Shown: positions 11,627 to 27,004, numbered from the stretch's first letter. The stretch is 64,000 bases of DNA from Pseudobdellovibrionaceae bacterium (GCA_023898385.1 CP060220.1:1676993-1740992); one strand, 5' to 3'. The notes: a model not told the origin generated them from the sequence alone. A program made the numbers and translations.

Positions 11627-14458
11627 GTGATAACGCAATTGAAAAAAATGATGTTCGGAACGTATTTCAATCAGTCTGTGCTGCTTTACTCTGCAGTTTC
11701 ACTTGTTTTTCTTCTTGGCTGTCAACTGGGTGACAATCAAATCCACGGCCGCATCAGTGGTGCTAGCGGGGCTGGTCAGTTTCAGCCCAGTTTTTTGATC
11801 AATGGCGGTAGCAGCTATGTGTCTGCGACCAGTGTAACTTTGCAAATCGAGCCCGATGGCGCAGTGGAATATTCTGTCCACCAAGACGCCTCTCAATGTG
11901 AGTCTACCCAGAGCTGGGAGCCAATCAGTGCTTCAGCCACAATTCCCCTTGAGCATCTTAATGACCTCGTGTCGGTTTTTATTAAATTTCGCACCGCCGA
12001 CGGCCTTGAATCGACCTGCATTAGTCAATCAATCACTCATGACAGTTTGGAACCCCTTCCGCCAGATACTTTGACGTTCAATTTAAGCTCCAGCTTTGAT
12101 GCGAGCACTACACCTGAACTAAACTTCTCGGCCGCCGCTGACCAAGGCAATGGCGATATTCATCACTACGAAGCTAGAATCGTTGCTGCCGATGGCGTCA
12201 CTGAAGTGGAACCATGGGTCACTGTGGAGACAGGCTATTCATTTTCGGGCCTAACTAGTTTAACACCGGGCGATCGATATCTTGTCGAAGTTCGGTCTGT
12301 GGATAAGGCTGGTAATGTGAGCGCGGGAAATTTATCTGATATTTTCACTGATAAAATCATTGAGTCCCGAATAGAAGGCCTCACTGACGTTGTTCATGCA
12401 ATCACCCCCGTAGATCTTGATGGCGATGGTGATTTGGATATTGTTTTGTCGGCGTACGACCAATACCTTTGGGCGGAAAATCTGGATGGCCTTGGAAAGT
12501 ACAGCACATTTAAGCCTGTGAGCCTATTATCAAAAACTTACGGCGGAGCCGTCACAGTTTACGACTTTAATGGTGACGGCACCAAGGATGTGGTAGCACC
12601 CCTTAAAAACCAAATCGTTTGGTTTCCGAACCAAGTTGCAGCCTATGGTCGATTTTTAATGCCCGTCCAAATAGTCGACCTGCCGGAAGCTCCGTTTGCA
12701 ATAGATATGGGAGACTTTAATGGCGATGGTCAGCCTGACTTTATTTATTTTTTAGCCGTGGCACAGGAACTAGGCTGTGTCCTCTCAAACAGTGACGGCA
12801 GCTATTCCACCCAACCGATCCATACCGGGTTCACGATATTTCCTTATAGCAATCCCATGATTGTGGATTTTGACTCTGATGGTGATTTAGATATTGTCGC
12901 CAATTTAGGATCTGACACCGTCTTGTTTCGCAACTCCGACGGACTTGGCGCCTTCTCGGGACCTGAAGTATTGGTGTCGGGCGCTCTCCAACTGGCCCAC
13001 GGTGATCTCGATGGTGACGGTGACCCTGACTTTATTTCGTCATTGCGAGTTTACAAGAACAACGCCGGCACATTGGTACCTATGGCTGATTACGAAACAG
13101 TTAATACCTATTTTACAAACTATATAAGTCTCGTGGCTGATATGGATAGCGATGGCGATTTAGATTTTGTTACAAAAAGAGCTACGGGCAATAATCAGGT
13201 GCAATGGCATGAAAATACTGATGGCTTAGGCACGTTATCGGCAGGTGTCACTCTGGCCACTGAACTGATGGGCCAAGATATCGATGGCTTTAGTGTTCTT
13301 GATTATGATGGCGACCTGGATCTAGACGTTATAGTCGCTTTTGATGACCCATTTGATTTAGTCATGATTGAAAATACAGATGGCCACGGCGCTTTTGGAC
13401 CGGCTGACTCTGTCACCAACCAACTCACTGGGGTCTATCTTCACGACGTTGTAGATTTTGATGCCGATGGCGACCTGGACATTATTGCATTAACCGGCAC
13501 CAGTGTTGTTTGGGTTGAGAATACCGATGGTCAGGGTAAAATGAATGCCAATCACAATTTGGTATCAGATTATTTGCCGATACAAAAAAACTTGCGGGTT
13601 GTTGACATGGACGGCGACTCCGATTTGGATATCGTGACTGCTAGTACCAGTCAGATTTTTTGGTATGAGAATCTCAACCCTGGTTTCTCTGGCCGGATTG
13701 TTATTACTTCTGCGGTAAACAACCTAAAAGACTTTATCATTGCAGATATTGATAACGACAGCGATCCAGATATTTTTTCAGTTTCAGATGGCGATGAGAA
13801 AACCGCCATGTACCTCAATAATGGCGATGGAACATTTGGCTCGCAAAATGTGATCACCACGTCGTTAATAGACCCACTTTCACTACGACTGGAAGACATT
13901 GATGGCGACTCGGATTTAGATTTGGTTGTGCTAAAATATCACTACGTCAACTTTTCTACCCAACACAGAGGTGTCCATTGGATTGAAAATACCGATGGCG
14001 CAGGCACTTTTGGCACCATTCGCAACATCATGACTGGTCAGTTATGCATCAACAATACCAATATCCCTCACCCCGGATTGGAGTTTGCTGATTTAGACGG
14101 TGACGGCGACCTCGACATGGTTTGCTTTGGACTGGGTGCCAGTACGAATTCTTGGGTGAAAAACACTGACGGTGCTGGAACATTTTCAGCTCCCACGAGT
14201 TTGGGCTTCACCTCAGGGTTTTTAGAATCGTTGGATTTTGACAACGACGGCGACCTCGATTTGGTGGCTTTCAGAGCTTCAGGCCTCAATTGGTATGAGA
14301 ACACTGACGGCCTGGGAACATTCGGAGGCGAAAACCTGATCTCTAGTGGGCTAATATCGTTGTCCTATCCCACCACAGCTGATTTTAACGGCAACGGAAA
14401 ATTGGATCTCCTCGGCGTGGTCGGCAACCTATTCTCGCCCTACATTGTTCTTCGGTAG
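11627..14458 (+). CDS. large FG-GAP/VCBS-repeat lipoprotein (integrin-alpha-like, about 14 Ca-binding blades) with an N-terminal FN3-like region
   Basis: Lipobox FLLGC. Hand count of 14 Dx(D/N)xDGDxD loops (DLDGDGDLDIV, DFDSDGDLDIV and others), each near a W-x-EN-x-DG-x-G-x-F motif. The start is more likely MMFGTYF at 11648. Confidence 0.85.
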   Translation: MITQLKKMMFGTYFNQSVLLYSAVSLVFLLGCQLGDNQIHGRISGASGAGQFQPSFLINGGSSYVSATSVTLQIEPDGAVEYSVHQDASQCESTQSWEPISASATIPLEHLNDLVSVFIKFRTADGLESTCISQSITHDSLEPLPPDTLTFNLSSSFDASTTPELNFSAAADQGNGDIHHYEARIVAADGVTEVEPWVTVETGYSFSGLTSLTPGDRYLVEVRSVDKAGNVSAGNLSDIFTDKIIESRIEGLTDVVHAITPVDLDGDGDLDIVLSAYDQYLWAENLDGLGKYSTFKPVSLLSKTYGGAVTVYDFNGDGTKDVVAPLKNQIVWFPNQVAAYGRFLMPVQIVDLPEAPFAIDMGDFNGDGQPDFIYFLAVAQELGCVLSNSDGSYSTQPIHTGFTIFPYSNPMIVDFDSDGDLDIVANLGSDTVLFRNSDGLGAFSGPEVLVSGALQLAHGDLDGDGDPDFISSLRVYKNNAGTLVPMADYETVNTYFTNYISLVADMDSDGDLDFVTKRATGNNQVQWHENTDGLGTLSAGVTLATELMGQDIDGFSVLDYDGDLDLDVIVAFDDPFDLVMIENTDGHGAFGPADSVTNQLTGVYLHDVVDFDADGDLDIIALTGTSVVWVENTDGQGKMNANHNLVSDYLPIQKNLRVVDMDGDSDLDIVTASTSQIFWYENLNPGFSGRIVITSAVNNLKDFIIADIDNDSDPDIFSVSDGDEKTAMYLNNGDGTFGSQNVITTSLIDPLSLRLEDIDGDSDLDLVVLKYHYVNFSTQHRGVHWIENTDGAGTFGTIRNIMTGQLCINNTNIPHPGLEFADLDGDGDLDMVCFGLGASTNSWVKNTDGAGTFSAPTSLGFTSGFLESLDFDNDGDLDLVAFRASGLNWYENTDGLGTFGGENLISSGLISLSYPTTADFNGNGKLDLLGVVGNLFSPYIVLR

Positions 14459-14690
14459 ACCCTCGAATGATTTTTTACAATCAATATTCTCAAAATGATA
14501 TAAAATGGACCATGACTCAATACCATGAATGTCAGCAGACAACGTGAAATCTCATTAATCTGGTGCCGACTCACCATGTCCACAACTGAATCTCAGTCTA
14601 ATTTGGCTAGTACGTAAATTCTCAATTTAAAACAAAATCAAAAAAATCTCTATCGCACGCCTAAAACCTCTCAAGAAATTCCATATTTTT

Positions 14691-14697
14691 CCGATAA
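14691..14697 (+). promoter_or_regulatory. sigma-28-type -10-like element CCGATAA (extended CCGATAAGACTTACGGCT)
   Basis: The 18-mer matches CCGATAAGACTTTAGGCT at 11572 except at 2 positions. The -35 position reads TCAA (3/4). Confidence 0.4.
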
Positions 14698-14815
14698 GAC
14701 TTACGGCTGATTATTTATTTTACTAATTTTAAAAGGATTGAACTTGAGATGCAGAAATCTTAGATTCTTCACTTCTGAAGCTCAGCTGCCAAAAACTGGC
14801 CGCTGTTACCCAACA

Positions 14816-16630
14816 ATGGTACGTTATGGAGCCCTGGTCCGTCTGCTCTTTTCGATGTTTTTCATTGCATCGACTTCTTGCCGTCTTGGTGACAACCGAA
14901 TCTATGGAGTCATAAGATCGGATTCATTGCCGTCAACTCCGACAACACCTCTAGTTGTTGCAGCAGCACCTGCACAAATGGGGGTCGGAACTACAAATAA
15001 TATCGCGCCTAGCGGTGGAACACCGCCATACACCTATGAAGTGGTTGCTGGACAGGCCACTGTGGATAGCAATGGTACTGTTTCATTGAATTGGGGCCTC
15101 GGTGACGTACAAATACGAATTACCGATAGCAGTGGCAACGAACAATTCTGGAACACAGAAGTGACGGGGGCAAAGCTCCATCCTGACGTGGTGATTGGCG
15201 GCGACCTGGATACCTACTATACGTGTGCCGCAACAAACAAGGTTTACTTTATTGGTGATGTGTATACTGACGGAATCAATGAACTCTTCGAATCTGATCT
15301 CAACGGCGGCAACTTTCGAAAGCTCAATCAGACTCTTGCCCCTGGCCAATCCGTATTACAATTTAGTCTTTCGCCAGACTGCAGCCACATCACTTATTCC
15401 GCCGACGACAATGGCGATGGCTCACGCGATGTGTTCACGCTGGACCTCTCTGGGGGGACGCCCGTAAATGTGAGTGCCTTAACCGGTACAGTTTCCACTT
15501 TTCCGCGATTTGCTGATAGTGGGGCAAAAGTTGTGTTTTTAGCCCAGTATTCAGGGCCCTTAAAATCAGTGGTGATGGCTGCTGTAGTTGGGGATGATGA
15601 TAGCGCCTATGTACTCAATGGCCCGTTAGCGTCAGATAACCCTGGTGTTGATAACATCTTTATGCTGCCTGACGACCAGACGGTTGCCTACTGGGGCACA
15701 CAAGATGACAACGCTAATAAAGAGCTCTTTACTGTGTCTATTAATGGAGGCGCCTACACAAATACCACAGCCCCCGGAACAGGTGATTGGGTTTTTTTCA
15801 CCGGATACTCAGCTGGCGGCAATCGATTGGTCTACGGATCTAGCCAACCGGTGACCAATTGTTATCTTTATGGAGCCACGGCGGGAATCCAAGGCGCGAT
15901 AGATCTCACCTCTCCAAGCGTTAACTATGCCTCACAAGTGGATTTCTCCTGCTCCCAATTTAAAATCAGCTCTGATGGAAATACAGTGATATATTTCGGA
16001 AAAGAATCGCCATCTAACCAATTTGCCCTTTACAAATCATCGACGACATCGACCGGTAGCACCCGCCTCACCCAACTAGAAACGGTGCCTTCATCCTATT
16101 CGGTCAACAGTTACGCATATTCACGGGACCAGTCACATGCCTATTTTGTCGGCAAACTATCAGGCGAGACTATAGGTCAACTGTACAAAGTTCCTTTAGC
16201 AGGAGGACCCTCAACTAAACTTACCAACTATGCATCGGGCACAGGGGTAACAAGTTTTCAGGAGTCAGTTGATCAAACAAAAATCGTCTACAAATTCAAC
16301 ACCGGATCAGGTCAGCACCTTTACTCGATGGATGTCGACGGCGGCTCGAACACGCCATTGATGAGCTCCGGAGACGTTGGTCAGTTGCAGATTACAAGTA
16401 GTAACCGAGTGATATTCTCACATCGACCGTCTACGTCGGGTTCATATGATCTTTATTCAGTGAACCTCGATGGCAGTGATATAAAAAAGATTTCAGGTGA
16501 TGCCACATCAGGGGGGGGAATGCAATGGGGTACGGAATTTACAGTCTCCGCCGACGGGCTAAAGGTTGTTTATAAGTCAGACCAAGAAGTGGATGAGCAA
16601 TACGAGATTTACGTAACTGGCGCTAAATAA
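14816..16630 (+). CDS. exported beta-propeller lipoprotein (PD40/TolB-like repeats) with an N-terminal Ig-like region
   Basis: Signal peptide and lipobox (FFIASTSC) follow Met at 14816. Recurrent motifs are of the type DG..I.Y......G....L(Y/F)....DG (DVFTLDLSGG, LYSMDVDGG, LYSVNLDGSD). The listed 14738 start adds 26 non-signal residues. Confidence 0.7.
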   Translation: MVRYGALVRLLFSMFFIASTSCRLGDNRIYGVIRSDSLPSTPTTPLVVAAAPAQMGVGTTNNIAPSGGTPPYTYEVVAGQATVDSNGTVSLNWGLGDVQIRITDSSGNEQFWNTEVTGAKLHPDVVIGGDLDTYYTCAATNKVYFIGDVYTDGINELFESDLNGGNFRKLNQTLAPGQSVLQFSLSPDCSHITYSADDNGDGSRDVFTLDLSGGTPVNVSALTGTVSTFPRFADSGAKVVFLAQYSGPLKSVVMAAVVGDDDSAYVLNGPLASDNPGVDNIFMLPDDQTVAYWGTQDDNANKELFTVSINGGAYTNTTAPGTGDWVFFTGYSAGGNRLVYGSSQPVTNCYLYGATAGIQGAIDLTSPSVNYASQVDFSCSQFKISSDGNTVIYFGKESPSNQFALYKSSTTSTGSTRLTQLETVPSSYSVNSYAYSRDQSHAYFVGKLSGETIGQLYKVPLAGGPSTKLTNYASGTGVTSFQESVDQTKIVYKFNTGSGQHLYSMDVDGGSNTPLMSSGDVGQLQITSSNRVIFSHRPSTSGSYDLYSVNLDGSDIKKISGDATSGGGMQWGTEFTVSADGLKVVYKSDQEVDEQYEIYVTGAK

Positions 16631-16903
16631 CGAGATCTTTGTAGGCATTCCGACCATTTTTTAGTCGTCGGGCAGACACCTGAATAATCCATTTCTAGTT
16701 TTCGAAAAACCAACGACGCAACCATCAACCGCTATTAATAATTCACAAGGGTTATTGGTGAAACACCGAACCATGGACCCACTTTACACTGCGGCTTAGG
16801 TCCGAATACGAAAATCAAACGTATCGTTACTCAACCTATATCTAGTTTGCCTGGATGGATCCGACCATGGTCTAAATGAAATTTTATTTTATCAGGTTTT
16901 TAT

Positions 16904-16910
16904 CCGATAC
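16904..16910 (+). promoter_or_regulatory. sigma-28-type -10-like element CCGATAC
   Basis: It lies 7 nt upstream of ATG 16918. The -35 position matches poorly (TTAT). Confidence 0.25.
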
Positions 16911-16917
16911 TAAGACT

Positions 16918-17997
16918 ATGAAAAGGTTCTATCTATATATCGCACTTTTTCTAATTTACTTTGTTCCACACGAAGTATTTGCAAAGGTTTGTTCACACCT
17001 AGTGCAGCCCTACGAGCACACAATGCACATACTAAGGGTTTATGGGCATACTAGCCCAAACAAATCTACCCTTGATCAATTTAAAAAGCTCAATCGGGAT
17101 TTAAAAAGCATCAACTACCTCATACCTGGTAAAATCGTGTTCGTTCCGGTAGCGAAAAAGTTTGGCGAAAACTTCCAGTGCTATAGCCGAATATTTGAAA
17201 ATTATCCTGCCGTACAAGTGACTCCAGTTATACATGTGAACCTACCATCAAACGGTTATGGGACGGTGACGGCTCCGCCCCTGGCTAAACACTATGGCTC
17301 TGTGCAACGGCAATCCGCCTCCGCCAGCCCCCTCCCTGCACGCATGGCAGGTCCCATAGACGATTACAAACCCTTGGATTACTCTTTATCTGCCGAGTAC
17401 TACCCCTCATTCGGCACCATCACGTCCATAGCAAAATCAGATAGTTCAAAGGCCACCGCAGTTTCGAACCTTAATCATGGTATTAACGTTACAGCATCAC
17501 TATTCCCAAATGAAGATTTCACATATTCATTTAGCGGAGGGTACCAAGCGCATAGTTATGCTGAGTTCGAAAATCGAATTTTTGAAAATAGAAGTCACCA
17601 ACTCACAAAATTGCACATTGGTGCGAGCTACAAAATCTCTGCCATTCACAGCATCTCAGGCCGTGTGGGAATCAAAACTAGTTTATTTTTAGTCCCAAAT
17701 GACACCACCACCATTACAATGAAAAAGCTGTCTCAAAATGAAATGGTCGTAGGCTATGCCGCGAAATTGGATATTCTTAATGGATCATTTTATAACAATA
17801 TTTTCCTTAAATACGATTTACCAGGGTCATCTGAACTAAATCCTGAAAATGGATTTGGGATAGAGTATAATAATAAATGGATAGGCATCGACCAGCACAT
17901 TTATTTTGGTGGCCTATTCGAATATTTTTCGCAGGAAATTGCCAATTACTCGCAATCGACTGTGAATTACGGATTGTTGGTAGGCTATGAATACTAA
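16918..17997 (+). CDS. outer-membrane beta-barrel protein with an N-terminal LysM-like segment
   Basis: Signal peptide MKRFYLYIALFLIYFVPHEVFA. The C-terminal half has alternating hydrophobic residues and ends in GYEY (aromatic terminus). There is an LysM-like stretch LDQFKKLNRDLKSINYLIPGKIVFVP. Confidence 0.6.
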   Translation: MKRFYLYIALFLIYFVPHEVFAKVCSHLVQPYEHTMHILRVYGHTSPNKSTLDQFKKLNRDLKSINYLIPGKIVFVPVAKKFGENFQCYSRIFENYPAVQVTPVIHVNLPSNGYGTVTAPPLAKHYGSVQRQSASASPLPARMAGPIDDYKPLDYSLSAEYYPSFGTITSIAKSDSSKATAVSNLNHGINVTASLFPNEDFTYSFSGGYQAHSYAEFENRIFENRSHQLTKLHIGASYKISAIHSISGRVGIKTSLFLVPNDTTTITMKKLSQNEMVVGYAAKLDILNGSFYNNIFLKYDLPGSSELNPENGFGIEYNNKWIGIDQHIYFGGLFEYFSQEIANYSQSTVNYGLLVGYEY

Positions 17998-19135
17998 GAC
18001 CGCTATCAAAATCTCACTTATTTTTCTATGGACTCTTTGGACCGGTGCGTGCAATCCAGCCGGCACAGTCAGTACGGCGGATACATCTTATGGATCAAGT
18101 GAGTCTGCCGCACCCACTCCCGAACCACCAGATTACCCTGAACTCACCGGCACCATTGGAATCAGTAGTGACGCAAACAACAAGCAGGCTCCCACAACTG
18201 ATTTTACGTCTCTCATTAATGATGATGCCGATCAGATGAATATCTCTTCTATTGAAATAGCTATCACGACAGAGACGGTCACTCCAAATAGCGATTTATC
18301 TGATGAAACCATTGGCAACGTACTCGATTGGACAGACATTACAAGCTCTCTGAACGGTGGCAACAGTGCAAACAACCACGATCCTGGAGATTGGAGCACC
18401 TTTCAACCTACCGAAGCGGGTCTGAGTCTCGATTTTGACGGCCTCGGCGATGGTACAATTGACGACCTCGCCGCAGGCACAGATTACTACATTTCCATCC
18501 GAGTCACCAACGAAGACGGCCTCACCTCAACCGTATCAACCACCCCCGGCTCTGGCTCCACTTCGAGCGCATGGAGCTTTAGCCCCCTTATTGATGGTCT
18601 AGCCCCTGTTCAGTCTTATGCAGAAAATACCAACTTTGGCACCTGGGCCACAAATACCGATGTTCTTGATCACATCTTTCAAGTCTCCTTCATCACCCCA
18701 GCATCAATGCCGGTATCAAGGACTCTTATTTTTGAATCTGGTGGCTCAGGCAAAGGTCAAGGGCTTTTAGTCGATGCCAGTGGTTACCTGGAGTTTCATT
18801 CAGGATCATCCACAGCTGCTGGATCGCCGCGAGTCACAAGTTCCCAACCCCTTTTACCTAATCAACAATATACAGTGATTATTTTTGTAGATAACGCCGC
18901 TGGGGATATTTTTATGTGGGTATCAACCCTAGCTGATGGCTCCCAGGTCAACCTTCCTGTTGACGTAGAAGATACGACCTATAATCAAACTGACCACTGC
19001 GGTACAGATGGAGGCGCCTATGGCCAAGCCACAAATGGCTCAACAGGCGGCGTCAGCTCTGGCACTTTTGCTGTATTTCCAGCAACCTACACATCAAACC
19101 TATTTATCTATAACGGTCGACCCTCTGGGTACTGA
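17987..19135 (+). CDS. exported lipoprotein, possibly with a C-terminal concanavalin/LamG-like domain
   Basis: Lipobox WTGAC, a Ser/Thr/Asp-rich linker, and a C-terminal LIFESGGSGKGQGLLVDASGYLEFHSG pattern. The start overlaps the upstream gene by 11 nt. Confidence 0.6.
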   Translation: MNTKTAIKISLIFLWTLWTGACNPAGTVSTADTSYGSSESAAPTPEPPDYPELTGTIGISSDANNKQAPTTDFTSLINDDADQMNISSIEIAITTETVTPNSDLSDETIGNVLDWTDITSSLNGGNSANNHDPGDWSTFQPTEAGLSLDFDGLGDGTIDDLAAGTDYYISIRVTNEDGLTSTVSTTPGSGSTSSAWSFSPLIDGLAPVQSYAENTNFGTWATNTDVLDHIFQVSFITPASMPVSRTLIFESGGSGKGQGLLVDASGYLEFHSGSSTAAGSPRVTSSQPLLPNQQYTVIIFVDNAAGDIFMWVSTLADGSQVNLPVDVEDTTYNQTDHCGTDGGAYGQATNGSTGGVSSGTFAVFPATYTSNLFIYNGRPSGY

Positions 19136-19497
19136 TTGTGACAAAATAACCAGAGAGAAAGTTGCCGCCAACAGCGAATCCCCACATCCCCGCAAATCTT
19201 CTCCACCCACTTAAGGCTCTAAGAAGCCACCTTTCCTGGACAACACCAGTCGAAAAATTTAATGCTGGCCTTAGCGCTGCAATACCTAGTAGGAAGGCAC
19301 GCACCCCACAGATCTAGAACGAGAGGGGCCATTTAAGGCTGACAAAAAGTGTCACTTTTTTCTCCATTGGACACTCCCCACAATCCCACTCAATTGAAGG
19401 CCCCACAACATACTCCCGGCTAGGGAACTCTTTTTGCAAAAACCAATGGAAGCTATTAAGAAAGTCCAAATTGGTAATACCGCCCCAGGAGGCCTAA

Positions 19498-21198
19498 GTG
19501 AAATTGACCGCTTTTCGTTGTCTCATATTTGCAGCATCTACTCTGGCGACAAGTGCCGCCTCCCTTAGGGCCATCGCCTCTGACATTACGGCACCCCCCT
19601 ACGACCTCACTGATAAGTCTGCTATTGAACAGAGATTTGACGAAATCCTACCCAGCCATGGTCATGCTGTCGCCCAAATAGATCTCGGCGTTCAGACCGA
19701 AATCGAACTCTTTAATCAATCCCTGGCTTCCATGAAGGTCTTTCGATTGAATGCGCTTAACTTTCTGTCGGATGTAGTAAAAAAAGCGGATGCAGCTGAA
19801 GTGAGTGGTGAAGACTTTGTTCTTGATCAAGAATTTAGCCATCGCCTCATGGCTGGAAGTCGACAGATCTTAAACTATCGCTACGACATTTGGTCAACAA
19901 TCAATAAATACCGTTCAATCAGTGATATACAAAAACATTCTAGACAAAAACTTTATATCAATGAAAAGCCTCCTTGGTTTGGATGGAAGACCGATAAAAA
20001 GTATGTTTTCGACACCAAAACTCCACGTGGAAAGCTTCTAATTAAAGAACTGTCTCTTGGCGTGGCAGCAGCTCTTTCACTTTACGATAATTACTTTTTG
20101 TTGATCGAATCCTTCGAGAACATTGGGTACGTAAGACGTCGACTCAATCATGGCGACCAGTCTTTCTCAATCCCATCGGATCAACTTGATGAAATATCAG
20201 ATGGAATTCGAAGTTTCTCAAATCGGGCTGCGCTTCGCGACACTCTTGAAATGCTTGATTCTTGGGCTCAAGGAAAATCAAAAGAAGAACTTGAGCAAAT
20301 GGGTGTCGCAGAATTAGTTGAAATTATTAATTCATCATTCTCGGCTTCGATTTTTCGAGCGAACCTGTTTGAACGATCAGCCATGATGCTTCAACACAGT
20401 CTTGACAAAGGATTTTTTAATGAATTGCGAGATGGTCGCATTGATTCAACAAATTCAATTACAAATTCTTTAAGCAAACTATTTGGCAACGCTGTCGGCC
20501 TCGTCGAATTCCGAAAAGGAAAACTCTTTAATGACAGCCACGTTACAAGTATGGTTCGCGGAAAACTCAAACCCCTTGATATTTTACTTGAAAAAACCCC
20601 CTTTCGCGTGACAGACCGATTTATACCTGGGCACTGGGGCCATGTGGCCATCTGGATTGGCAGCCTTGATGAACTAAAGAAGGATGGAACCTGGGATCAA
20701 CTCACTAAGACAGAACAATGGCAGAGCATCCCCGCCGATCGCAAACAAACCATTGTTAAGAATTTGCAAGATGGACATGTAATATTAGAAGCGCTTCGCA
20801 CTGGCGTTGAATTAAACTCACTGGAACACTTTCTAAATGTCGACGATTTTGTGGCCCTCAGAGTTAACAACGAAATGACAGAGAGTGATAAAGTTGAAAC
20901 CTTAGCGCGAGCACTATCACATTTTGGCAAAGAGTATGATTTCAACTTCGACATTTCTACGACCAGCAAAATAGTCTGCTCTGAACTGGCCTATCAAACT
21001 TATTTTGGTGTGAAATGGCCTACAGAAAAAACTTTAGGTCGATATAATATTACGCCCGATCATGTGGCTCAGCTAGCCATTGAAGGGGTGCCGTTCTCAG
21101 TGGTTGATTTATGGCATGATGGGCTTCGAGTGTCTGGCACACAGACTGAATTAGACTACGCATTTAACTCATTGATGATCGATAGCACCATTCAATAG
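19498..21198 (+). CDS. exported protein with a C-terminal YiiX/YaeF-type permuted NlpC/P60 (papain-like) domain
   Basis: AGGAGG lies 7 nt before GTG 19498, and there is a signal peptide. The His-then-Cys order (PGHWGHVAIWIG ... ILEALRTGVE ... YDFNFD...KIVCSELAYQTY) fits permuted NlpC/P60. Confidence 0.7.
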   Translation: MKLTAFRCLIFAASTLATSAASLRAIASDITAPPYDLTDKSAIEQRFDEILPSHGHAVAQIDLGVQTEIELFNQSLASMKVFRLNALNFLSDVVKKADAAEVSGEDFVLDQEFSHRLMAGSRQILNYRYDIWSTINKYRSISDIQKHSRQKLYINEKPPWFGWKTDKKYVFDTKTPRGKLLIKELSLGVAAALSLYDNYFLLIESFENIGYVRRRLNHGDQSFSIPSDQLDEISDGIRSFSNRAALRDTLEMLDSWAQGKSKEELEQMGVAELVEIINSSFSASIFRANLFERSAMMLQHSLDKGFFNELRDGRIDSTNSITNSLSKLFGNAVGLVEFRKGKLFNDSHVTSMVRGKLKPLDILLEKTPFRVTDRFIPGHWGHVAIWIGSLDELKKDGTWDQLTKTEQWQSIPADRKQTIVKNLQDGHVILEALRTGVELNSLEHFLNVDDFVALRVNNEMTESDKVETLARALSHFGKEYDFNFDISTTSKIVCSELAYQTYFGVKWPTEKTLGRYNITPDHVAQLAIEGVPFSVVDLWHDGLRVSGTQTELDYAFNSLMIDSTIQ

Positions 21199-21209
21199 AG
21201 GATATCAGA

Positions 21210-22364
21210 ATGACGGTTACAAAAAGAATCTCGTTTTCGCTTTGGAAAACCCTCTTAGCGGCAGGGTGTGCTTTTGTACTCATGCCACTGGCGCAGGCTC
21301 AAACACCTGAGAATGGCTCTTTTAATTTAGCGCCATTAAAAGAGTATTTTCAATTTGATAGCAAAAACAAGTCCATCACATATGATATTGTGCCTGAGTT
21401 CAAAACAAGTCTTGGTGAAGAGTACGCACTACGAAAGACAAAAAAGGCTTTCTCCACGGCCCTCAATCGCACGTTTAGCGAAGGAGCTCTCAATCAATTA
21501 AAAGGGCACCTGCAAAAAGCCTTCATCGAGGAGTTTGTCTACACTTTGCTGGTAATGAAGTTAATAAATAGCCGCACTCAGATTGATTTACATTTTATAC
21601 CCAGGTCCGATTCAGCCAGTGACTTTTCGCCAGAATTAAGTAGCAATGATTTCGTCCACTTTGCCCGCCCCACGAAATTGTCTGAACAGATTAAATCGAA
21701 CGCAAACACAGATTTGGAGACAACATTAAAAGAACTCTCAAAGTCTCACTCTATCAATGGGTACGTGGCTGGCGTGATCTCGCTGCAAGTAGACATTGCT
21801 GATGTAGATTTGTCTAACTTTAAGTCGCTGAAGGATCTTAAACATGGAGCCGTTAAGGGCATGGTGCGATTAAGAAAGTATATCATTGAGAACGCGACAA
21901 CCCAAAGTGTGGATTGGAAACATGGCCATCTTTCTATATCAGAAATTGGCACTTCACCACGATCACTCGATAAAATCAGCACCGTGGATGTTCAATTGAA
22001 TTTTGACTTAGGGCATCTCATACCCAAAGCCTCAACTATTAATGTTTTTCCTGGGCGGCTAGTTCCAGTGGAAACCAAAGAGAATTGGTGGTGGCCCATT
22101 TGGTCTTCATTACCTAAAGGTAAACCACTGTATTTTCAAGGCCATGTTTATGACGGCTTTTCATCAAAAGCCATGGGTGCATATTTAGATATGGTCAGCT
22201 ATGATCTTAGACAAAAAACCGTCTCAACAAAATTGAGATCCTGGGGGCCGCTAGAAGATCAAGACAAACAACAACTACAGGGCCTCATCGAACGACAGAT
22301 CCGACAATTGGGTTCAGAAATACTTGGCCTTGACAACTATCTTCCGTCACTGAGGCAACCATGA
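21210..22364 (+). CDS. exported protein of unknown function
   Basis: Signal peptide (LMPLAQAQ). It is tightly packed between the YiiX-like and PLD genes, with its stop overlapping the next start. I recognise no motif. Confidence 0.65.
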   Translation: MTVTKRISFSLWKTLLAAGCAFVLMPLAQAQTPENGSFNLAPLKEYFQFDSKNKSITYDIVPEFKTSLGEEYALRKTKKAFSTALNRTFSEGALNQLKGHLQKAFIEEFVYTLLVMKLINSRTQIDLHFIPRSDSASDFSPELSSNDFVHFARPTKLSEQIKSNANTDLETTLKELSKSHSINGYVAGVISLQVDIADVDLSNFKSLKDLKHGAVKGMVRLRKYIIENATTQSVDWKHGHLSISEIGTSPRSLDKISTVDVQLNFDLGHLIPKASTINVFPGRLVPVETKENWWWPIWSSLPKGKPLYFQGHVYDGFSSKAMGAYLDMVSYDLRQKTVSTKLRSWGPLEDQDKQQLQGLIERQIRQLGSEILGLDNYLPSLRQP

Positions 22365-24577
22365 AAACATTGAATATTTTTTTATTTTTAAGTATTGCGA
22401 TCTCGTCTTTTACCTCGGCAGCCCAAGTGCCTACGTTCTCGCTGCAAGATAGAATTAAGACTCAAGAATTTTTTAAAAAAAGCCACCCTATTCTATTTGG
22501 AAAGCCCGAGCTGCGAAGTGTAAAAGCATTCCAAGAGGCGCTTAAAATAGAAAAAGGCTTTTTAAAAAAATCGCATTGGTTGCGAGCCATTGCATTGATT
22601 GAAAAACTTGAAGATCGGGTCCCTGAGTCGATCCTACTTCCAATTGTTTACTGGCGCATTATCGAGCCGAGCTCGGCAAATTTAGAAACCACTCTTTCCT
22701 ATTTAATGCTGTCAAAATTATTAATGCTTCGAGACAACATTGACGCACCTAATAGCTCCAGTAAAGCGGAAGCTTTAGCGGCTTTAGTTGAGGCATCGGG
22801 CGACAATCGTATACAAACGGCCAATATTTTTTCTAGAACCATGACCAGCGGTCTTATCCCCCAAATGGCTGCCCGGCTAGCGAAACTGAAAAAGGACGAC
22901 GACTTTACCGATCAGGTGATAAACAATCGAATTGTCGGCTATCCGTTTGAGGACATCGCACCGCACATCACACCTTACTCTCTATCTCATCTGGGATACA
23001 TTCCCGGCAACGAAGTGGAACTGGTCAGCGAAAACGATCAATCTCCAGAACGAGTGCAGTGGTATAATGATCGAATCATGTTTAATGGGGCTCAGCTGGA
23101 CTGGAGCAAGCCTTACATGAAGATGCCCACCAGAGAAGAAATCGCCCGTTATGATCAAATTCCATCTGATTTGCGCCCACACATAGCTTTTGCCAAAGAC
23201 CCAATCTTTATGAAGATTCGCGATATGATTGATTGCGCTGAGGATTCCATTTTTATCGATATATTTCTGTTTGGCGGCACTTTAGGGGGAACACTGGCTA
23301 AATACTTGATCGATGAAACAGTAAAAAAACGCGCTAAAAATCCCAAGTTTCAAACAATCATACTTCATGACTTTGCAACAAACTATAATATGAAAGATGA
23401 AATGATGCCTGTCTTTCGCTACATCCGCGATCGAATTAACGGCAAGTCCGCAGTACCCGGTGAGGCGGTTGTTCCAGCTGGTTCGCTAATTTTACTCCAA
23501 GCAAATATTCAACGGCATACCCCAGGAATACCCTTTGGTCTGTCTGAACTCATTGAAAAAAATGTCGATAATTTTAAAGAAATAGAAAAGAGAAACACCT
23601 ACTACGAATCAAAAATTGACCACAGCAAAGTCATTGTCATTGACGGAAACACCGGGCGTGCAGAGGCCTATTTTGGGTCAAAAAACTGGACTGACCACAG
23701 TGGTGGGTACTATTACGACAACGCCCTTTGGATTAAAGGCCCGGCAGCAACATTGGTACAATACAGCTATTATGATGATATCGATGCTGCTTTGACCACA
23801 GATGAAGCTGAGCAAAAATGGTTTTTCTTTAAAGAAGAGGGCTTCGGCAACGAGAAATATATTGCCCAGAGAGATTCCATCTTAGCCTCTATTCAAATCA
23901 CCTTAGACAATATTAAAACTGCTGGCGAAGATACTGTGCAGCTAACAGAAGCCAACGTCGACGGTCGGATTAAAAATACTCGAAATATGATCATCGACAT
24001 GATCATAAAAGCGAAGTCACACATCTACATGGAGCAGCTGTTTATCTATGATAAATACATCAACGATGCATTTATCAAGGCTAAGATTCAAAACCCCACT
24101 TTGGACGTCCGCATTCTGGCCGACCATAATGGTAATTTTGGCATGAACGGGCTGCCAAATACCATTTTTATGGAAGAGCTCAATAAATATGGTATTCAAA
24201 TCCGAGCTCGTCAAACTCAGACTATTCCAGTGACTTACCCTGATGGCAGCACCGGAAAATATCACCAGGAAAACCATAGGAAAATTATTTCTGTGGATGG
24301 TAAAACTCTGCTGGTTGGGTCTTCGAACATGAATCCAGATACTTTTCAAGGAAGCTTTAGAGAATTTGGCGCCCAAATGTTTAACCAACAACAGATTTCT
24401 AAATTTGAAAGAGACTTTTTGGGTGACTGGCAAGACTCTTCGAAAACCGAACCCTTTGACGTCGCAGGTAGAAAGTTAGTCGTGTTTGGCAAAGAACTCT
24501 CTGAAGAAACATCTTCTTTGATTAACTCCATTTTAGGCCAGATTCTGCGAGTGAAAGACCAACTTGAGTTTCGATAG
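22361..24577 (+). CDS. exported phospholipase D superfamily enzyme (two HKD motifs)
   Basis: HSKVIVIDGNTGRAEAYFGSKNWTDHS and HRKIISVDGKTLLVGSSNMNPDT are both HxK(x)4D(x)6GSxN motifs. N-terminal signal peptide. Confidence 0.85.
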   Translation: MKTLNIFLFLSIAISSFTSAAQVPTFSLQDRIKTQEFFKKSHPILFGKPELRSVKAFQEALKIEKGFLKKSHWLRAIALIEKLEDRVPESILLPIVYWRIIEPSSANLETTLSYLMLSKLLMLRDNIDAPNSSSKAEALAALVEASGDNRIQTANIFSRTMTSGLIPQMAARLAKLKKDDDFTDQVINNRIVGYPFEDIAPHITPYSLSHLGYIPGNEVELVSENDQSPERVQWYNDRIMFNGAQLDWSKPYMKMPTREEIARYDQIPSDLRPHIAFAKDPIFMKIRDMIDCAEDSIFIDIFLFGGTLGGTLAKYLIDETVKKRAKNPKFQTIILHDFATNYNMKDEMMPVFRYIRDRINGKSAVPGEAVVPAGSLILLQANIQRHTPGIPFGLSELIEKNVDNFKEIEKRNTYYESKIDHSKVIVIDGNTGRAEAYFGSKNWTDHSGGYYYDNALWIKGPAATLVQYSYYDDIDAALTTDEAEQKWFFFKEEGFGNEKYIAQRDSILASIQITLDNIKTAGEDTVQLTEANVDGRIKNTRNMIIDMIIKAKSHIYMEQLFIYDKYINDAFIKAKIQNPTLDVRILADHNGNFGMNGLPNTIFMEELNKYGIQIRARQTQTIPVTYPDGSTGKYHQENHRKIISVDGKTLLVGSSNMNPDTFQGSFREFGAQMFNQQQISKFERDFLGDWQDSSKTEPFDVAGRKLVVFGKELSEETSSLINSILGQILRVKDQLEFR

Positions 24578-24665
24578 AAGTGAATATTTGAACATCTCAC
24601 TCTTTTATAATTCGCAGTCTATTACCTGAGGCCATAGTATTTTTCTCTGGCCCTGAGCCCAAACC

Positions 24666-25937
24666 TCACTCCTTGGCTGGCATGCGGGGGGCTTGTTTTT
24701 CGTTTAAGTAGGCACGTAGTATTTTTGCTACTTCCACCGACCGGTCATGACCCTCTGACGCTGACACACCCTCGACTCTCTTGACAACCTGGCCTTCTGC
24801 ATTGAATTCATCTCCCTTCATTATGAGGGCCCGGTAGCTGTTGAGTTTGGTTCGATACCGATAGTCCAATCCCTTTTTGGTGCTTTTGTCGGCTGTGGCC
24901 AGAAGATAGGGCACCAAGATCTTGGGGTCGTTCAGGTGCGGATGCATGGCAATGAGCAATGCCGCCACTCCTGACACAAAAGCCGTGGCTTGAGAAGTAC
25001 CCGTCATGTAGCCATATTGTCCTCCATGCAAAGTGGAGTAAATCTCATTTCCTGGTGCCGCAATATCTACTGTATGTTTTCCGTAGTTGCTTGTTGGCAA
25101 CAATTTACTTTGGTTGTCGATGGCCGTCACTGACAAGATATTGGGTAGATCATAGTCCGCAGGATAAAAGGGTTTGTGGTCTGAATTGCTGGCCTCATTT
25201 CCAGCAGCGGCCACCACCAACACATTTTGATCAGCGGCTTTTTTAAGGGCCTGGTACTCCATTACGGAAGATGTGAGGCCACCACCTGAATAATTGATGA
25301 TGTGGGCCCCCATTTTTATAGCATACTCAATGGCCCTCACCGTATTAAACAGCGTTTGCTGACCCATAGCTTTCGGATCATAGTATTTTAAAATCATTAG
25401 GCTTACATTGGGCGAAACACCACTAACGCCCACACCATTTCCGCCATCGGCGCCGATAATACCTGCGATATGACTGCCATGGCCGTGATGATCTGTAATA
25501 TCACTATTGTTAGAGGCGAAGTTCCAACCATGTACATCATCGACAAAACCGTTTTTATCATCGTCAACTCCATTGGTTTCTTTGTTTCGTCCTTTGGAGT
25601 CCACGCCAGTTTCTCCTGGGTTCTGCCAAAGGTTTTTTCGTAAGTCCACATGCCATGGATCAATACCCGTATCGATTACAGCCACAACCACCCGACGACT
25701 GCCCTGCTGCAACTGCCAAGCTTTGGAAGTCTCAATATCTTTTAGACCCCATTTTAGTGACATGGCAGGATCGCTCTCAATAACTGATACCTGTTTGATT
25801 GATGGTTCTTTTTGGATTTTTGGCGACTCTAACTGAACAGGTCGTTCAATCGCCCTTGCAAATACTGATGTGAAAAGAATAAAGATTGTTCCTCCGACGT
25901 GCCACCGCAAAACTAAAACTCGCGGCAGGCTTTTCAT
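24666..25937 (-). CDS. subtilisin-family (S8) serine protease, exported
   Basis: Catalytic Asp, His and Ser motifs: VAVIDTGID, HGHGSHIAGIIGA and MTGTSQATAFVSG. Signal peptide present. Confidence 0.9.
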   Translation of the reverse strand: MKSLPRVLVLRWHVGGTIFILFTSVFARAIERPVQLESPKIQKEPSIKQVSVIESDPAMSLKWGLKDIETSKAWQLQQGSRRVVVAVIDTGIDPWHVDLRKNLWQNPGETGVDSKGRNKETNGVDDDKNGFVDDVHGWNFASNNSDITDHHGHGSHIAGIIGADGGNGVGVSGVSPNVSLMILKYYDPKAMGQQTLFNTVRAIEYAIKMGAHIINYSGGGLTSSVMEYQALKKAADQNVLVVAAAGNEASNSDHKPFYPADYDLPNILSVTAIDNQSKLLPTSNYGKHTVDIAAPGNEIYSTLHGGQYGYMTGTSQATAFVSGVAALLIAMHPHLNDPKILVPYLLATADKSTKKGLDYRYRTKLNSYRALIMKGDEFNAEGQVVKRVEGVSASEGHDRSVEVAKILRAYLNEKQAPRMPAKE

Positions 25938-25951
25938 AAATAGACCTCCTT

Positions 25952-27004
25952 TTATAGATTGATCATTTTCAATAAACGGGCTGCCGCCTCAAGCTCCCTT
26001 CCCGGCTGAGAACTGAGAATTCCAGAGATTTGCCCGGCCCGATCAAAGGCCACTGAAACTCCAAGCTCTCCTCCGATTAAAGAGACCCTCTGCGGCAGCC
26101 CCACACGAACATCATAAATAGTTTCAATGAGTTCAGTTCCATGTTGCACTCGCGACTTCGATAGTGTCCGCGACTTTGAACCATCAAGCTTGTACCAATA
26201 TTCATGCCGAGACTGACTTATCGGGTGGCTATGGCACATTTTCTTTCGATCAACAAAATGGTGATCCGAGCCACCCCTATGATACTCCAACACCTCTCGG
26301 CACTGGGTCTTTGGGTCTTGAATCTCGATTAACCGATCATGGACCAAATCATAGGTTAATCTTAATTGAGATTCATCCGCCCGGATCACCTCAGTTAAAT
26401 TGTTATATAGGTCATATTTGTATTGAGTTGTTTCCATCGAAGAGTCGGTCACGCCCAACAGTAGATCATTCTTATAGGTGAACTTTCTTACCTGTGATTG
26501 CCATTGAATTTCCATGACCCTATCCAAGTCAGGGTCACGCAGCATTCGAAAGGTATTGCCCTCGCTGTCTTTAACATTTTTCAAATGACCCTTAGTTGTA
26601 AATTGAAACTTAAATTGATTGTTATCTGTGTATAAAAAACCCTGGGCATTGGCTGTCATCACCGCACCATTGACTGGTTTTCCGCACCTGTTAAGTTGGG
26701 GCTTTATGTCTGGCGACAGTTCAATATAAGTGTCTAGCCGAGAACACCATCCGAAACCAAACACTCCTACAAATAACGAACGACTTGAGTAAGTGCGTTC
26801 TATACCGAAATCAGATGACGACTCAGTAAAACTCCCACTTTGATAGTCGACGGAGGCTTGAGATTGAGTGGCCACTGTTAGAAGAAAGAGGCCAGCAAAC
26901 GTTCGGATCAGGTTAGGGTTGGGGGAGGAGAGGCATTTGGGGTGTACTAAAAAATTTTTCATAGTACACTCACCCCTATTGCAAGGGCGAGACCAGCTCT
27001 TCAC
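25952..27004 (-). CDS. small exported YD/RHS-repeat protein
   Basis: YKYDLYNNLTEV, LTYDLVHDRLIEI and FTYKNDLLLGV are YD-type repeats. A signal peptide follows the alternative start at 26962. The gene lies 14 nt upstream of the S8 protease. Confidence 0.6.
   Translation of the reverse strand: MKSWSRPCNRGECTMKNFLVHPKCLSSPNPNLIRTFAGLFLLTVATQSQASVDYQSGSFTESSSDFGIERTYSSRSLFVGVFGFGWCSRLDTYIELSPDIKPQLNRCGKPVNGAVMTANAQGFLYTDNNQFKFQFTTKGHLKNVKDSEGNTFRMLRDPDLDRVMEIQWQSQVRKFTYKNDLLLGVTDSSMETTQYKYDLYNNLTEVIRADESQLRLTYDLVHDRLIEIQDPKTQCREVLEYHRGGSDHHFVDRKKMCHSHPISQSRHEYWYKLDGSKSRTLSKSRVQHGTELIETIYDVRVGLPQRVSLIGGELGVSVAFDRAGQISGILSSQPGRELEAAARLLKMINL

Follow-up and report, generated by a model that had tools for sequence, protein, structure and literature searches.

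A three-gene operon predicted to encode exported lipid-acting proteins was identified in a 64,000-nucleotide (nt) stretch of DNA, referred to here as the window (GCA_023898385.1, CP060220.1:1676993-1740992), from the complete, 3.33-Mb genome of a Pseudobdellovibrionaceae bacterium, a member of the Bdellovibrionota. The three consecutive gene products, named P1, P2 and P3 from 5' to 3', are a protein with a YiiX-type Peptidase_C92 domain, a member of what appears to be a small orphan family, and a putative phospholipase D (PLD) with two HKD motifs. The conserved core of this operon is the P2-P3 pair and not the trio, and we put the probability that it specifies an exported prey-membrane lipid-dismantling module of predatory Bdellovibrionota at about 0.5. 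How Bdellovibrio-type predators breach and consume the membranes of their prey is poorly understood; the cell-wall enzymes of these predators are well studied, whereas their lipid-acting effectors are not.

Organization of the operon

The features of the operon are listed below; positions are counted from the first letter of the window and lengths of proteins are given in amino acids (aa).

19483-19497, plus strand: ribosome-binding region, AGGAGG before the GTG of P1, read from the sequence
19498-21198, plus strand: P1 open reading frame (ORF), 566 aa, GTG start
19660-20577, plus strand: P1 helical region, about aa 55-360, from the AlphaFold2 model; no known family
20578-21072, plus strand: P1 C92 domain, aa 361-525, from Pfam; predicted catalytic residues H382, E431, Y480 and C494
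21210-22364, plus strand: P2 ORF, 384 aa
22361-22364, plus strand: ATGA overlap of the P2 stop and the P3 start, read from the sequence
22361-24577, plus strand: P3 ORF, 738 aa
23621-23686, plus strand: P3 HKD motif 1, HSKVIVID(x10)GSKN, aa 421-442, invariant in both PLD clades
24275-24328, plus strand: P3 HKD motif 2, HRKIISVD(x6)GSSN, aa 639-656, invariant in both PLD clades

An initial annotation had described three tightly packed ORFs, and their coordinates, the 11-nt gap and the ATGA overlap were all recovered as given there. The junction between P1 and P2 reads TAG, 11 nt, ATG, and the ATGA shared by P2 and P3 points to translational coupling of these two genes. The promoter presumably lies within the 362-nt spacer 5' of P1 (19136-19497); a scan for sigma-70 promoter and terminator consensus sequences returned sites that did not exceed those of shuffled sequence. 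The N-termini of all three proteins show a basic start, a hydrophobic core of 12-15 residues and an Ala-rich cleavage region, and by eye they look like Sec signal peptides, as the initial annotation had also read them. A canonical lipobox is absent from all three window proteins. Because the gene order is repeated in 17 other loci and in one fused locus, the arrangement is not due to chance, and we regard it as a real three-gene operon for exported enzymes with a predicted action on lipids.

The P2-P3 pair is the conserved core

A pattern scan with one genome per species delivered 80 PLD loci, in each of which ORFs were called and searched with the three window proteins. P2 was found directly upstream of a PLD of clade 1 (39-74% identical to P3) in 45 loci, and in 30 of these an NTGA start overlaps the P2 stop codon. 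The P2-P3 loci span Bdellovibrio, Bacteriovorax, Halobacteriovorax and metagenome-assembled genomes (MAGs) of Oligoflexia, and judged by PLD similarity the relatives of the window genome belong to these same groups. P1 is located directly upstream of P2 in 17 loci, always with a gap of at most 30 nt or an overlap. This linkage of P1 is confined to Bdellovibrio-like lineages; elsewhere the P1 relatives are unlinked and multi-copy, and in Bacteriovoracia-type loci the P2-P3 pair is preceded by housekeeping genes, for example def and trmO. Of 24 further genera in the window's own family, only one (G011) has the trio; there the order is the same and the genes overlap. The recurrence of the trio was thus confirmed by 17 loci and one fusion, but the invariant unit is the P2-P3 pair with its 45 loci.

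The fusion is a 918-aa ORF in the Oligoflexia MAG JAMPXJ01 (L017:3158-5914), in which P1 and P2 are joined, the sequence REPAS is kept at the junction and the signal peptide of P2 is lost. Two further P1-P2 fusions, which measure 952 aa and 882 aa and have their C92 domain at the N-terminus, were detected among 119 relatives of P2, where they fall into separate 50%-identity clusters (P0038 and P0074). Fusion of P1 to P2 is therefore found in at least two lineages.

In a maximum-likelihood tree of the PLDs, in which a distant second PLD clade was set as root to aid reading, the P2-only loci of Bacteriovoracaceae are basal and the P1-linked loci lie in the derived part. On the strength of this placement the P2-P3 pair is probably ancestral, and P1 probably represents a later, lineage-specific recruit. 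Two Lentisphaeria MAG loci (L052 and L053) have a clade-1 PLD without P2 or P1, and since these PLDs nest among the Bdellovibrionota sequences, horizontal transfer or mis-binning is suggested. On the chromosome of B. bacteriovorus strain kdesi (L060), the PLD is represented by its C-terminal 332 aa only, P2 and P1 are absent and an unrelated 709-aa ORF lies upstream; this locus appears to be decaying or replaced.

The PLDs of the second clade in the Bdellovibrionota (L067-L095 and L012-L015) are about 800 aa long and 25-30% identical. They have an overlapping upstream partner of their own, of 400-510 aa, in all 27 loci with an upstream flank. Alignment of the P2 family with these partners by hhalign gave a probability of 2-4%, which does not show homology. 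In one locus of this clade (L013) an alpha/beta-hydrolase gene is found downstream.

The distribution was also determined in 301 evenly sampled Bdellovibrionota genomes, the relatedness of which makes the counts non-independent. The P2 profile matched 42 of these genomes (14%), with 9 of 18 in one Bdellovibrio-type genus and 27 of 67 in a family (f22) that was taken as Bacteriovoracaceae. The P1 profile matched 75 genomes, namely all 42 P2-positive ones and 33 of the 259 P2-negative ones, and the P1 family is often multi-copy and unlinked across the sample. Genomes of family f22 (e.g. G093, G101, G163 and G272) each contain at least four P1 paralogues of about 500-600 aa, most of which do not adjoin a PLD gene.

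P3 is a putative phospholipase D outside the housekeeping synthases

P3 matches the Pfam families PLDc_2 (E 1.1e-19, 71.1 bits against a cut-off of 27) and PLDc (25.5 bits against 21.9). The two full HKD motifs noticed at the outset were found at aa 421-442 and aa 639-656, and their H, K, G, S and N residues are invariant in both PLD clades. The N-terminal approximately 280 aa constitute a family-specific region. The first 60 residues contain no Cys, and a lipobox was present in none of six P3 relatives checked. A PLD profile search against PDB sequences gave no significant match; the best PDB sequence matches of P3 itself were the Streptomyces PLDs 1f0i and 1v0r, which are weak (E 8e-4) and cover the second HKD region only.

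The best NCBIfam matches of P3, although weak, are cardiolipin synthases, and we considered whether P3 might be a bona fide synthase with a housekeeping function. This was rejected both for cardiolipin synthase (TIGR04265, 37 bits against 290; ClsB NF008427, 23.6 against 281) and for phosphatidylserine synthase (PssA NF006946, 21.2 bits against 314), as all scores are far below the cut-offs. Moreover, the window genome has a separate ClsB-like gene (188 bits), by which housekeeping cardiolipin synthesis would be covered elsewhere in the genome. Outside the window, the same genome also encodes a further protein of 679 aa (G000:C1:3025663-3027702), which has two HKD domains of the NucT-like type and, at its N-terminus, an apparent signal.

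P1 has a permuted YiiX-type domain behind a family-specific helical region

Residues 361-525 of P1 match Pfam Peptidase_C92 (PF05708, MEROPS C92), the family of the YaeF/YiiX permuted papain fold, with an E-value of 5.5e-24 and 85.5 bits against a cut-off of 27. The histidines of GHWGHVA (378-384) precede the CSELAY sequence with C494, and this His-before-Cys order agrees with the permuted YiiX-type domain that had been proposed for P1. H382, E431, Y480 and C494 are invariant across 15 P1 orthologues, so that the catalytic residues are conserved. In an alignment with Escherichia coli YiiX (2if6), whose catalytic residues have been defined (PMC3142127), Y480 and C494 coincide with its Tyr/Cys pair, at a spacing of 14 residues versus 13 in YiiX. 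The four P1 residues are the counterparts of the His/Glu/Tyr/Cys tetrad of YiiX and BcPPNE. P1 was rejected as an equivalog of E. coli YiiX (NCBIfam NF007458, 27.5 bits against 216).

Members of the permuted NlpC/P60 group have a hydrophobic pocket, and those that have been characterised act on lipids by cleaving or transferring acyl chains. Tox-Act1 is a permuted NlpC/P60 phospholipase toxin that cleaves phosphatidylglycerol and phosphatidylethanolamine (PMC12994826), a fatty acid occupied the pocket of YiiX in the crystal (PMC3142127), and the YiiX-like relatives LnsA and Lnb are lipoprotein N-acyltransferases. The initial assignment of P1 to a fold class that acts on lipids is in line with these reports of action on acyl chains (PMC12994826, PMC3142127).

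In the AlphaFold2 model of P1 the C92 part has a predicted local distance difference test (pLDDT) value of around 90, and long helices are located at residues 55-103, 111-138, 176-206 and 295-329. Residues 1-350 match no Pfam or NCBIfam family. A Foldseek search of the P1 model against the PDB gave a best match with an E-value of 0.08, and its top matches, CYRI-B and F-BAR, were not interpretable. Two motifs in the helical region, LYDNY (aa 195-199) and FGNxxG (aa 329-334), are invariant in the family. As the Bacteriovoracaceae paralogues usually share only the profile positions from about 180 onward, the core of the P1 family would consist of the helical subdomain with LYDNY and FGNxxG plus the C92 domain. 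Ten of the 15 P1 orthologues are predicted lipoproteins.

P2 is an orphan partner

P2 has no match in Pfam or NCBIfam, and no Pfam family recurred over all 38 members of the P2 family; P2 and residues 1-350 of P1 had been described as lacking a recognisable motif, and both indeed lack a family match in these databases. A word-index search of 5.8 billion proteins returned only P2 itself, and HMMER, run exhaustively against 1.84 billion cluster representatives, yielded the 119 P2 relatives (clusters) mentioned above. As far as sequence searches can tell, P2 thus represents a small orphan family. The window P2 matches the profile of this family with an E-value of 1.6e-89, and five positions are invariant: P131, N146, R222, T258 and D260. 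The orthologues share no more than 17-27% identity with the window P2, compared to 39-74% for the PLDs of related loci. The relatives have an N-terminal hydrophobic anchor or, in the minority predicted to be lipoproteins (9 of 38 orthologues), a lipoprotein signal.

The AlphaFold2 model of P2, built from an alignment of 38 sequences, has a pLDDT of 73.9 and a predicted template modelling score (pTM) of 0.73, and shows an alpha/beta protein with long antiparallel strands on which helices are packed. Foldseek against the PDB found nothing below an E-value of 0.27, the top matches (LptD, leukocidin and MHC) being not interpretable, and a P2 profile search against PDB sequences gave no significant match. 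Structure prediction, which the initial annotation had suggested as a check on P2 and on the N-terminal region of P1, thus delivered models for both, neither of which matched a PDB fold.

A shared R-x-P-A-S motif in the P1 and P2 families

The families of P1 and P2, although not otherwise related, both have an R-x-P-[AS]-[AS] motif shortly after the N-terminal hydrophobic segment or lipobox (L018-L066). The motif is present in 8 of 18 P1 and 28 of 44 P2 sequences (36 of 62 together), in none of 80 P3 sequences, and in 3 of the 1,182 remaining ORFs of these loci. In all but one of the P1 lipoproteins it is positioned 7-10 residues past the lipobox Cys. Unlinked P1 orthologues have R-x-[IV]-[AS]-S instead, and the window P1 has RAIAS (19564-19578); the motif is absent from the window P2. 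It could be a processing, glycosylation or docking site. The idea that it serves as a general sorting signal in the window organism was dropped because an N-terminal enrichment is unclear genome-wide (0.095 versus 0.069 per 1,000 residues).

Counterparts in the Bdellovibrio bacteriovorus proteomes

The counterparts of P1, P2 and P3 in B. bacteriovorus HD100 are Bd3605, Bd3604 and Bd3603 (UniProt Q6MHE4, Q6MHE5 and Q6MHE6), which are uncharacterised; Bd3605 is annotated as C92 and Bd3603 as PLD-like (PMC12546842 supplement). The PLDs of B. bacteriovorus-type loci are 48-51% identical to the window P3, and the Bd3604 peptide SIPTGQFLVESK has an exact match in the P2 orthologue of a B. bacteriovorus-type locus.

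In a time-resolved predation proteome of HD100, Bd3605, Bd3604 and Bd3603 were all detected, with 36, 24 and 59 peptides, and all three rise between 4 h and 5 h, as the progeny attack-phase cells form (PMC12546842). Bd3605 increased by 1.08 on a log2 scale at 6-7 h compared to the starting attack-phase sample, at a false discovery rate of about 5e-18 (PMC12546842). Bd3603 and Bd3604 were furthermore detected by mass spectrometry in 'empty bdelloplasts', which are prey killed by a non-invading mutant, and Bd3603 was named as one of the secreted enzymes that are candidates for damaging the prey (PMC11003981). The supplement of the 2013 RNA sequencing paper on attack and growth phases has no entries for the Bd3603-Bd3605 genes. 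No paper in the literature searched considers these genes together as one unit or puts any one of them to the test. To this extent the claim that the trio had not been described as a unit holds, but the HD100 genes have been catalogued and the PLD has been flagged as a candidate secreted effector.

Proposed role and its alternatives

A module that breaks down or converts phospholipids of the prey envelope is the most economical reading, because the permuted NlpC/P60 enzymes are lipid-directed and are combined here with an exported PLD. In the proposed mechanism, P3 would cut or exchange phospholipid head groups and would almost always be co-produced with P2 by translational coupling. Bdellovibrio-like lineages would have recruited P1, from a fold class that cleaves or transfers acyl chains, to the position directly upstream. 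We infer that newly formed attack-phase cells are equipped with all three proteins and that the attack brings these to the prey envelope, where P1, as a phospholipase A-like enzyme or acyltransferase, and P3, as a PLD, would dismantle or convert the prey phospholipids. P2 would be a membrane-tethered partner that docks the PLD, presents substrate to it or restrains it until delivery, and it may also partner P1 where the two are linked or fused. The gene structure, the domain identities, the conserved catalytic residues, the linkage of P2 to P3, the P1-P2 fusions and, in B. bacteriovorus, the synthesis of the proteins and its timing are established; the substrates, the prey as target and the role of P2 are the parts of this mechanism that we infer. 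A membrane-attacking module was already suggested in the initial annotation; the two enzyme folds, the synthesis of the orthologous proteins and the finding of two of them in killed prey (PMC11003981, PMC12546842) speak for it, but the trio is not the constant unit that was envisaged.

Several observations weigh against the prey-directed role. Only 42 of 301 genomes and one of 24 family genera are positive, so the module is dispensable for predation as such, and in the two Lentisphaeria loci the PLD is encoded without P2. Neither a fold nor a family could be matched to P2, hence nothing in it points to a role, and HKD enzymes can be synthases instead of hydrolases, as exemplified by ClsO (PMC12846801). 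The empty-bdelloplast proteome also contains the predator housekeeping proteins Lon and LptD (PMC11003981), so that detection in it is no proof of secretion. Bd3603, Bd3604 and Bd3605 were not found in the file with Table 6 of the same study, which lists genes up at 30 min, and the levels of Bd3603 and Bd3604 are nearly flat over the predation cycle (PMC12546842).

The main rival explanation is that the operon serves to remodel the lipids of the predator's own envelope, which we consider possible but on the whole unlikely. P3 would then be an extracytoplasmic transphosphatidylase that makes cardiolipin or another lipid in the outer membrane and is held there by the anchored P2, while P1 would re- or deacylate lipids or lipoproteins. 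There is a precedent in ClsO of Acinetobacter baumannii, an exported HKD enzyme and outer-membrane lipoprotein that makes cardiolipin at this location (PMC12846801). The cardiolipin synthases among the weak NCBIfam matches of P3, the predicted lipoproteins among the P1 (10 of 15) and P2 (9 of 38) orthologues, the N-acylation of lipoproteins by the YiiX-like LnsA and Lnb, and the many peptides and nearly constant level of Bd3603 in HD100 are all consistent with it. However, P3 is devoid of the lipobox that is a defining feature of ClsO, and its scores are 8-fold or more below all Cls cut-offs. The patchy distribution (14% of the sampled genomes) fits an accessory weapon better than envelope maintenance, and peptides of Bd3603 and Bd3604 are present in dead prey that was not invaded.

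Alternatively, P2 and P3 might form a toxin-immunity pair, in which P2 is a periplasmic, tethered immunity protein or inhibitor that shields the predator membranes from the exported PLD, and not an adaptor or activator. The strict P2-PLD adjacency with its translational coupling, the N-terminal anchor or lipobox of P2, and the much faster evolution of P2 (17-27% identity) than of the PLD (39-74%) would be expected of such a pair, and immunity proteins against lipid toxins are typically membrane-associated (PMC12994826). Yet at least two lineages carry P2 as a fusion with the enzyme P1, an odd arrangement for an immunity protein, the P2 gene is located upstream and not downstream of the enzyme gene, Bd3604 was found together with Bd3603 in prey ghosts, and the PLD does without P2 in the two Lentisphaeria loci. 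We regard this explanation as rather improbable.

The prey-directed reading can be sharpened into a far more specific proposal, which is speculative and which we hold to be quite doubtful: P2 would be a tethered subunit with a new fold that licenses the exported PLD and couples it to the YiiX-type acyl-hydrolase in a predator-specific phospholipid-dismantling complex, and R-x-P-A-S would serve specifically to signal the release, modification or transfer of predator-to-prey cargo.

That P1 is a peptidoglycan amidase or peptidase, and the operon a combined attack on cell wall and membrane, is very improbable, since the S1 pocket of the permuted members is hydrophobic, acyl chains are what the characterised members act on, and Pfam detects no peptidoglycan-binding domain in P1, despite the name 'Peptidase_C92' given by Pfam and MEROPS, the many cell-wall hydrolases of the NlpC/P60 superfamily and the lysine bound in the active site of a B. 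cereus YiiX-like protein (PMC3142127).

By this analysis, three uncharacterised B. bacteriovorus proteins known from predation proteomes are linked as one conserved operon, the PLD is shown to be almost always paired with an orphan-fold partner, and roles and catalytic residues are proposed. If the module does attack prey lipids, it would represent a novel set of antibacterial enzymes; if the predator's own envelope is what it remodels, it would extend the recent idea of phospholipid chemistry outside the cytoplasm.

Genomic surroundings

The operon is surrounded (window 11627-27004) by genes for exported proteins, namely propeller lipoproteins, a barrel-like protein, an S8 subtilase and a small YD-repeat protein, and these flanking genes are not kept beside the trio in other genomes. 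No type VI secretion system (T6SS) domains were detected by Pfam among the proteins of the neighbouring window genes. The G+C content is 42.2-42.5% over the operon (window 20001-24000) versus about 45-47% in the flanks; this low G+C content and the patchy distribution in the family are compatible with horizontal acquisition.

Comparison with known systems

The initial annotation had likened P3 to the Tle5-type effectors. Tle5 (PldA/PldB) with its Tli5 immunity protein is a T6SS effector used against other bacteria, and, like P3, it is a two-HKD lipid enzyme encoded beside a small gene for an envelope-located partner. The likeness goes no further than the shared HKD superfamily: P3 has a Sec-type signal, no T6SS genes (vgrG, hcp, PAAR) are nearby, the partner gene of P3 lies upstream and belongs to no catalogued family, and no specific sequence similarity was found.

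With Tox-Act1/TseH and with YiiX (2if6), P1 shares the permuted His-then-Cys core with a conserved Tyr and Glu. In contrast to Tox-Act1/TseH, P1 belongs to the YiiX/C92 Pfam family and not to Tox-Act1 or DUF4105, it is predicted to be exported by the Sec route and not delivered by a T6SS, and it has a family-specific helical region of approximately 350 aa.

ClsO resembles P3 as an extracytoplasmic two-HKD enzyme acting on envelope phospholipids, which for P3 are the predicted substrate. ClsO is itself a lipoprotein and is ClsC-like, whereas the signal peptide of P3 appears to be a plain one, lipid or membrane anchors being confined to its partners. The Streptomyces PLDs (1f0i and 1v0r) are likewise Sec-exported and have two HKD motifs in one chain, but P3 has an extra N-terminal region of approximately 280 aa and a partner gene.

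Compared to the B. bacteriovorus-type orthologues, the window proteins do not have the lipobox found in many of them, and the window P2 is shorter (384 aa versus about 400-450 aa) and without R-x-P-A-S. Bd3605-Bd3604-Bd3603 nevertheless represent the same three families, in the same order, as the window trio.

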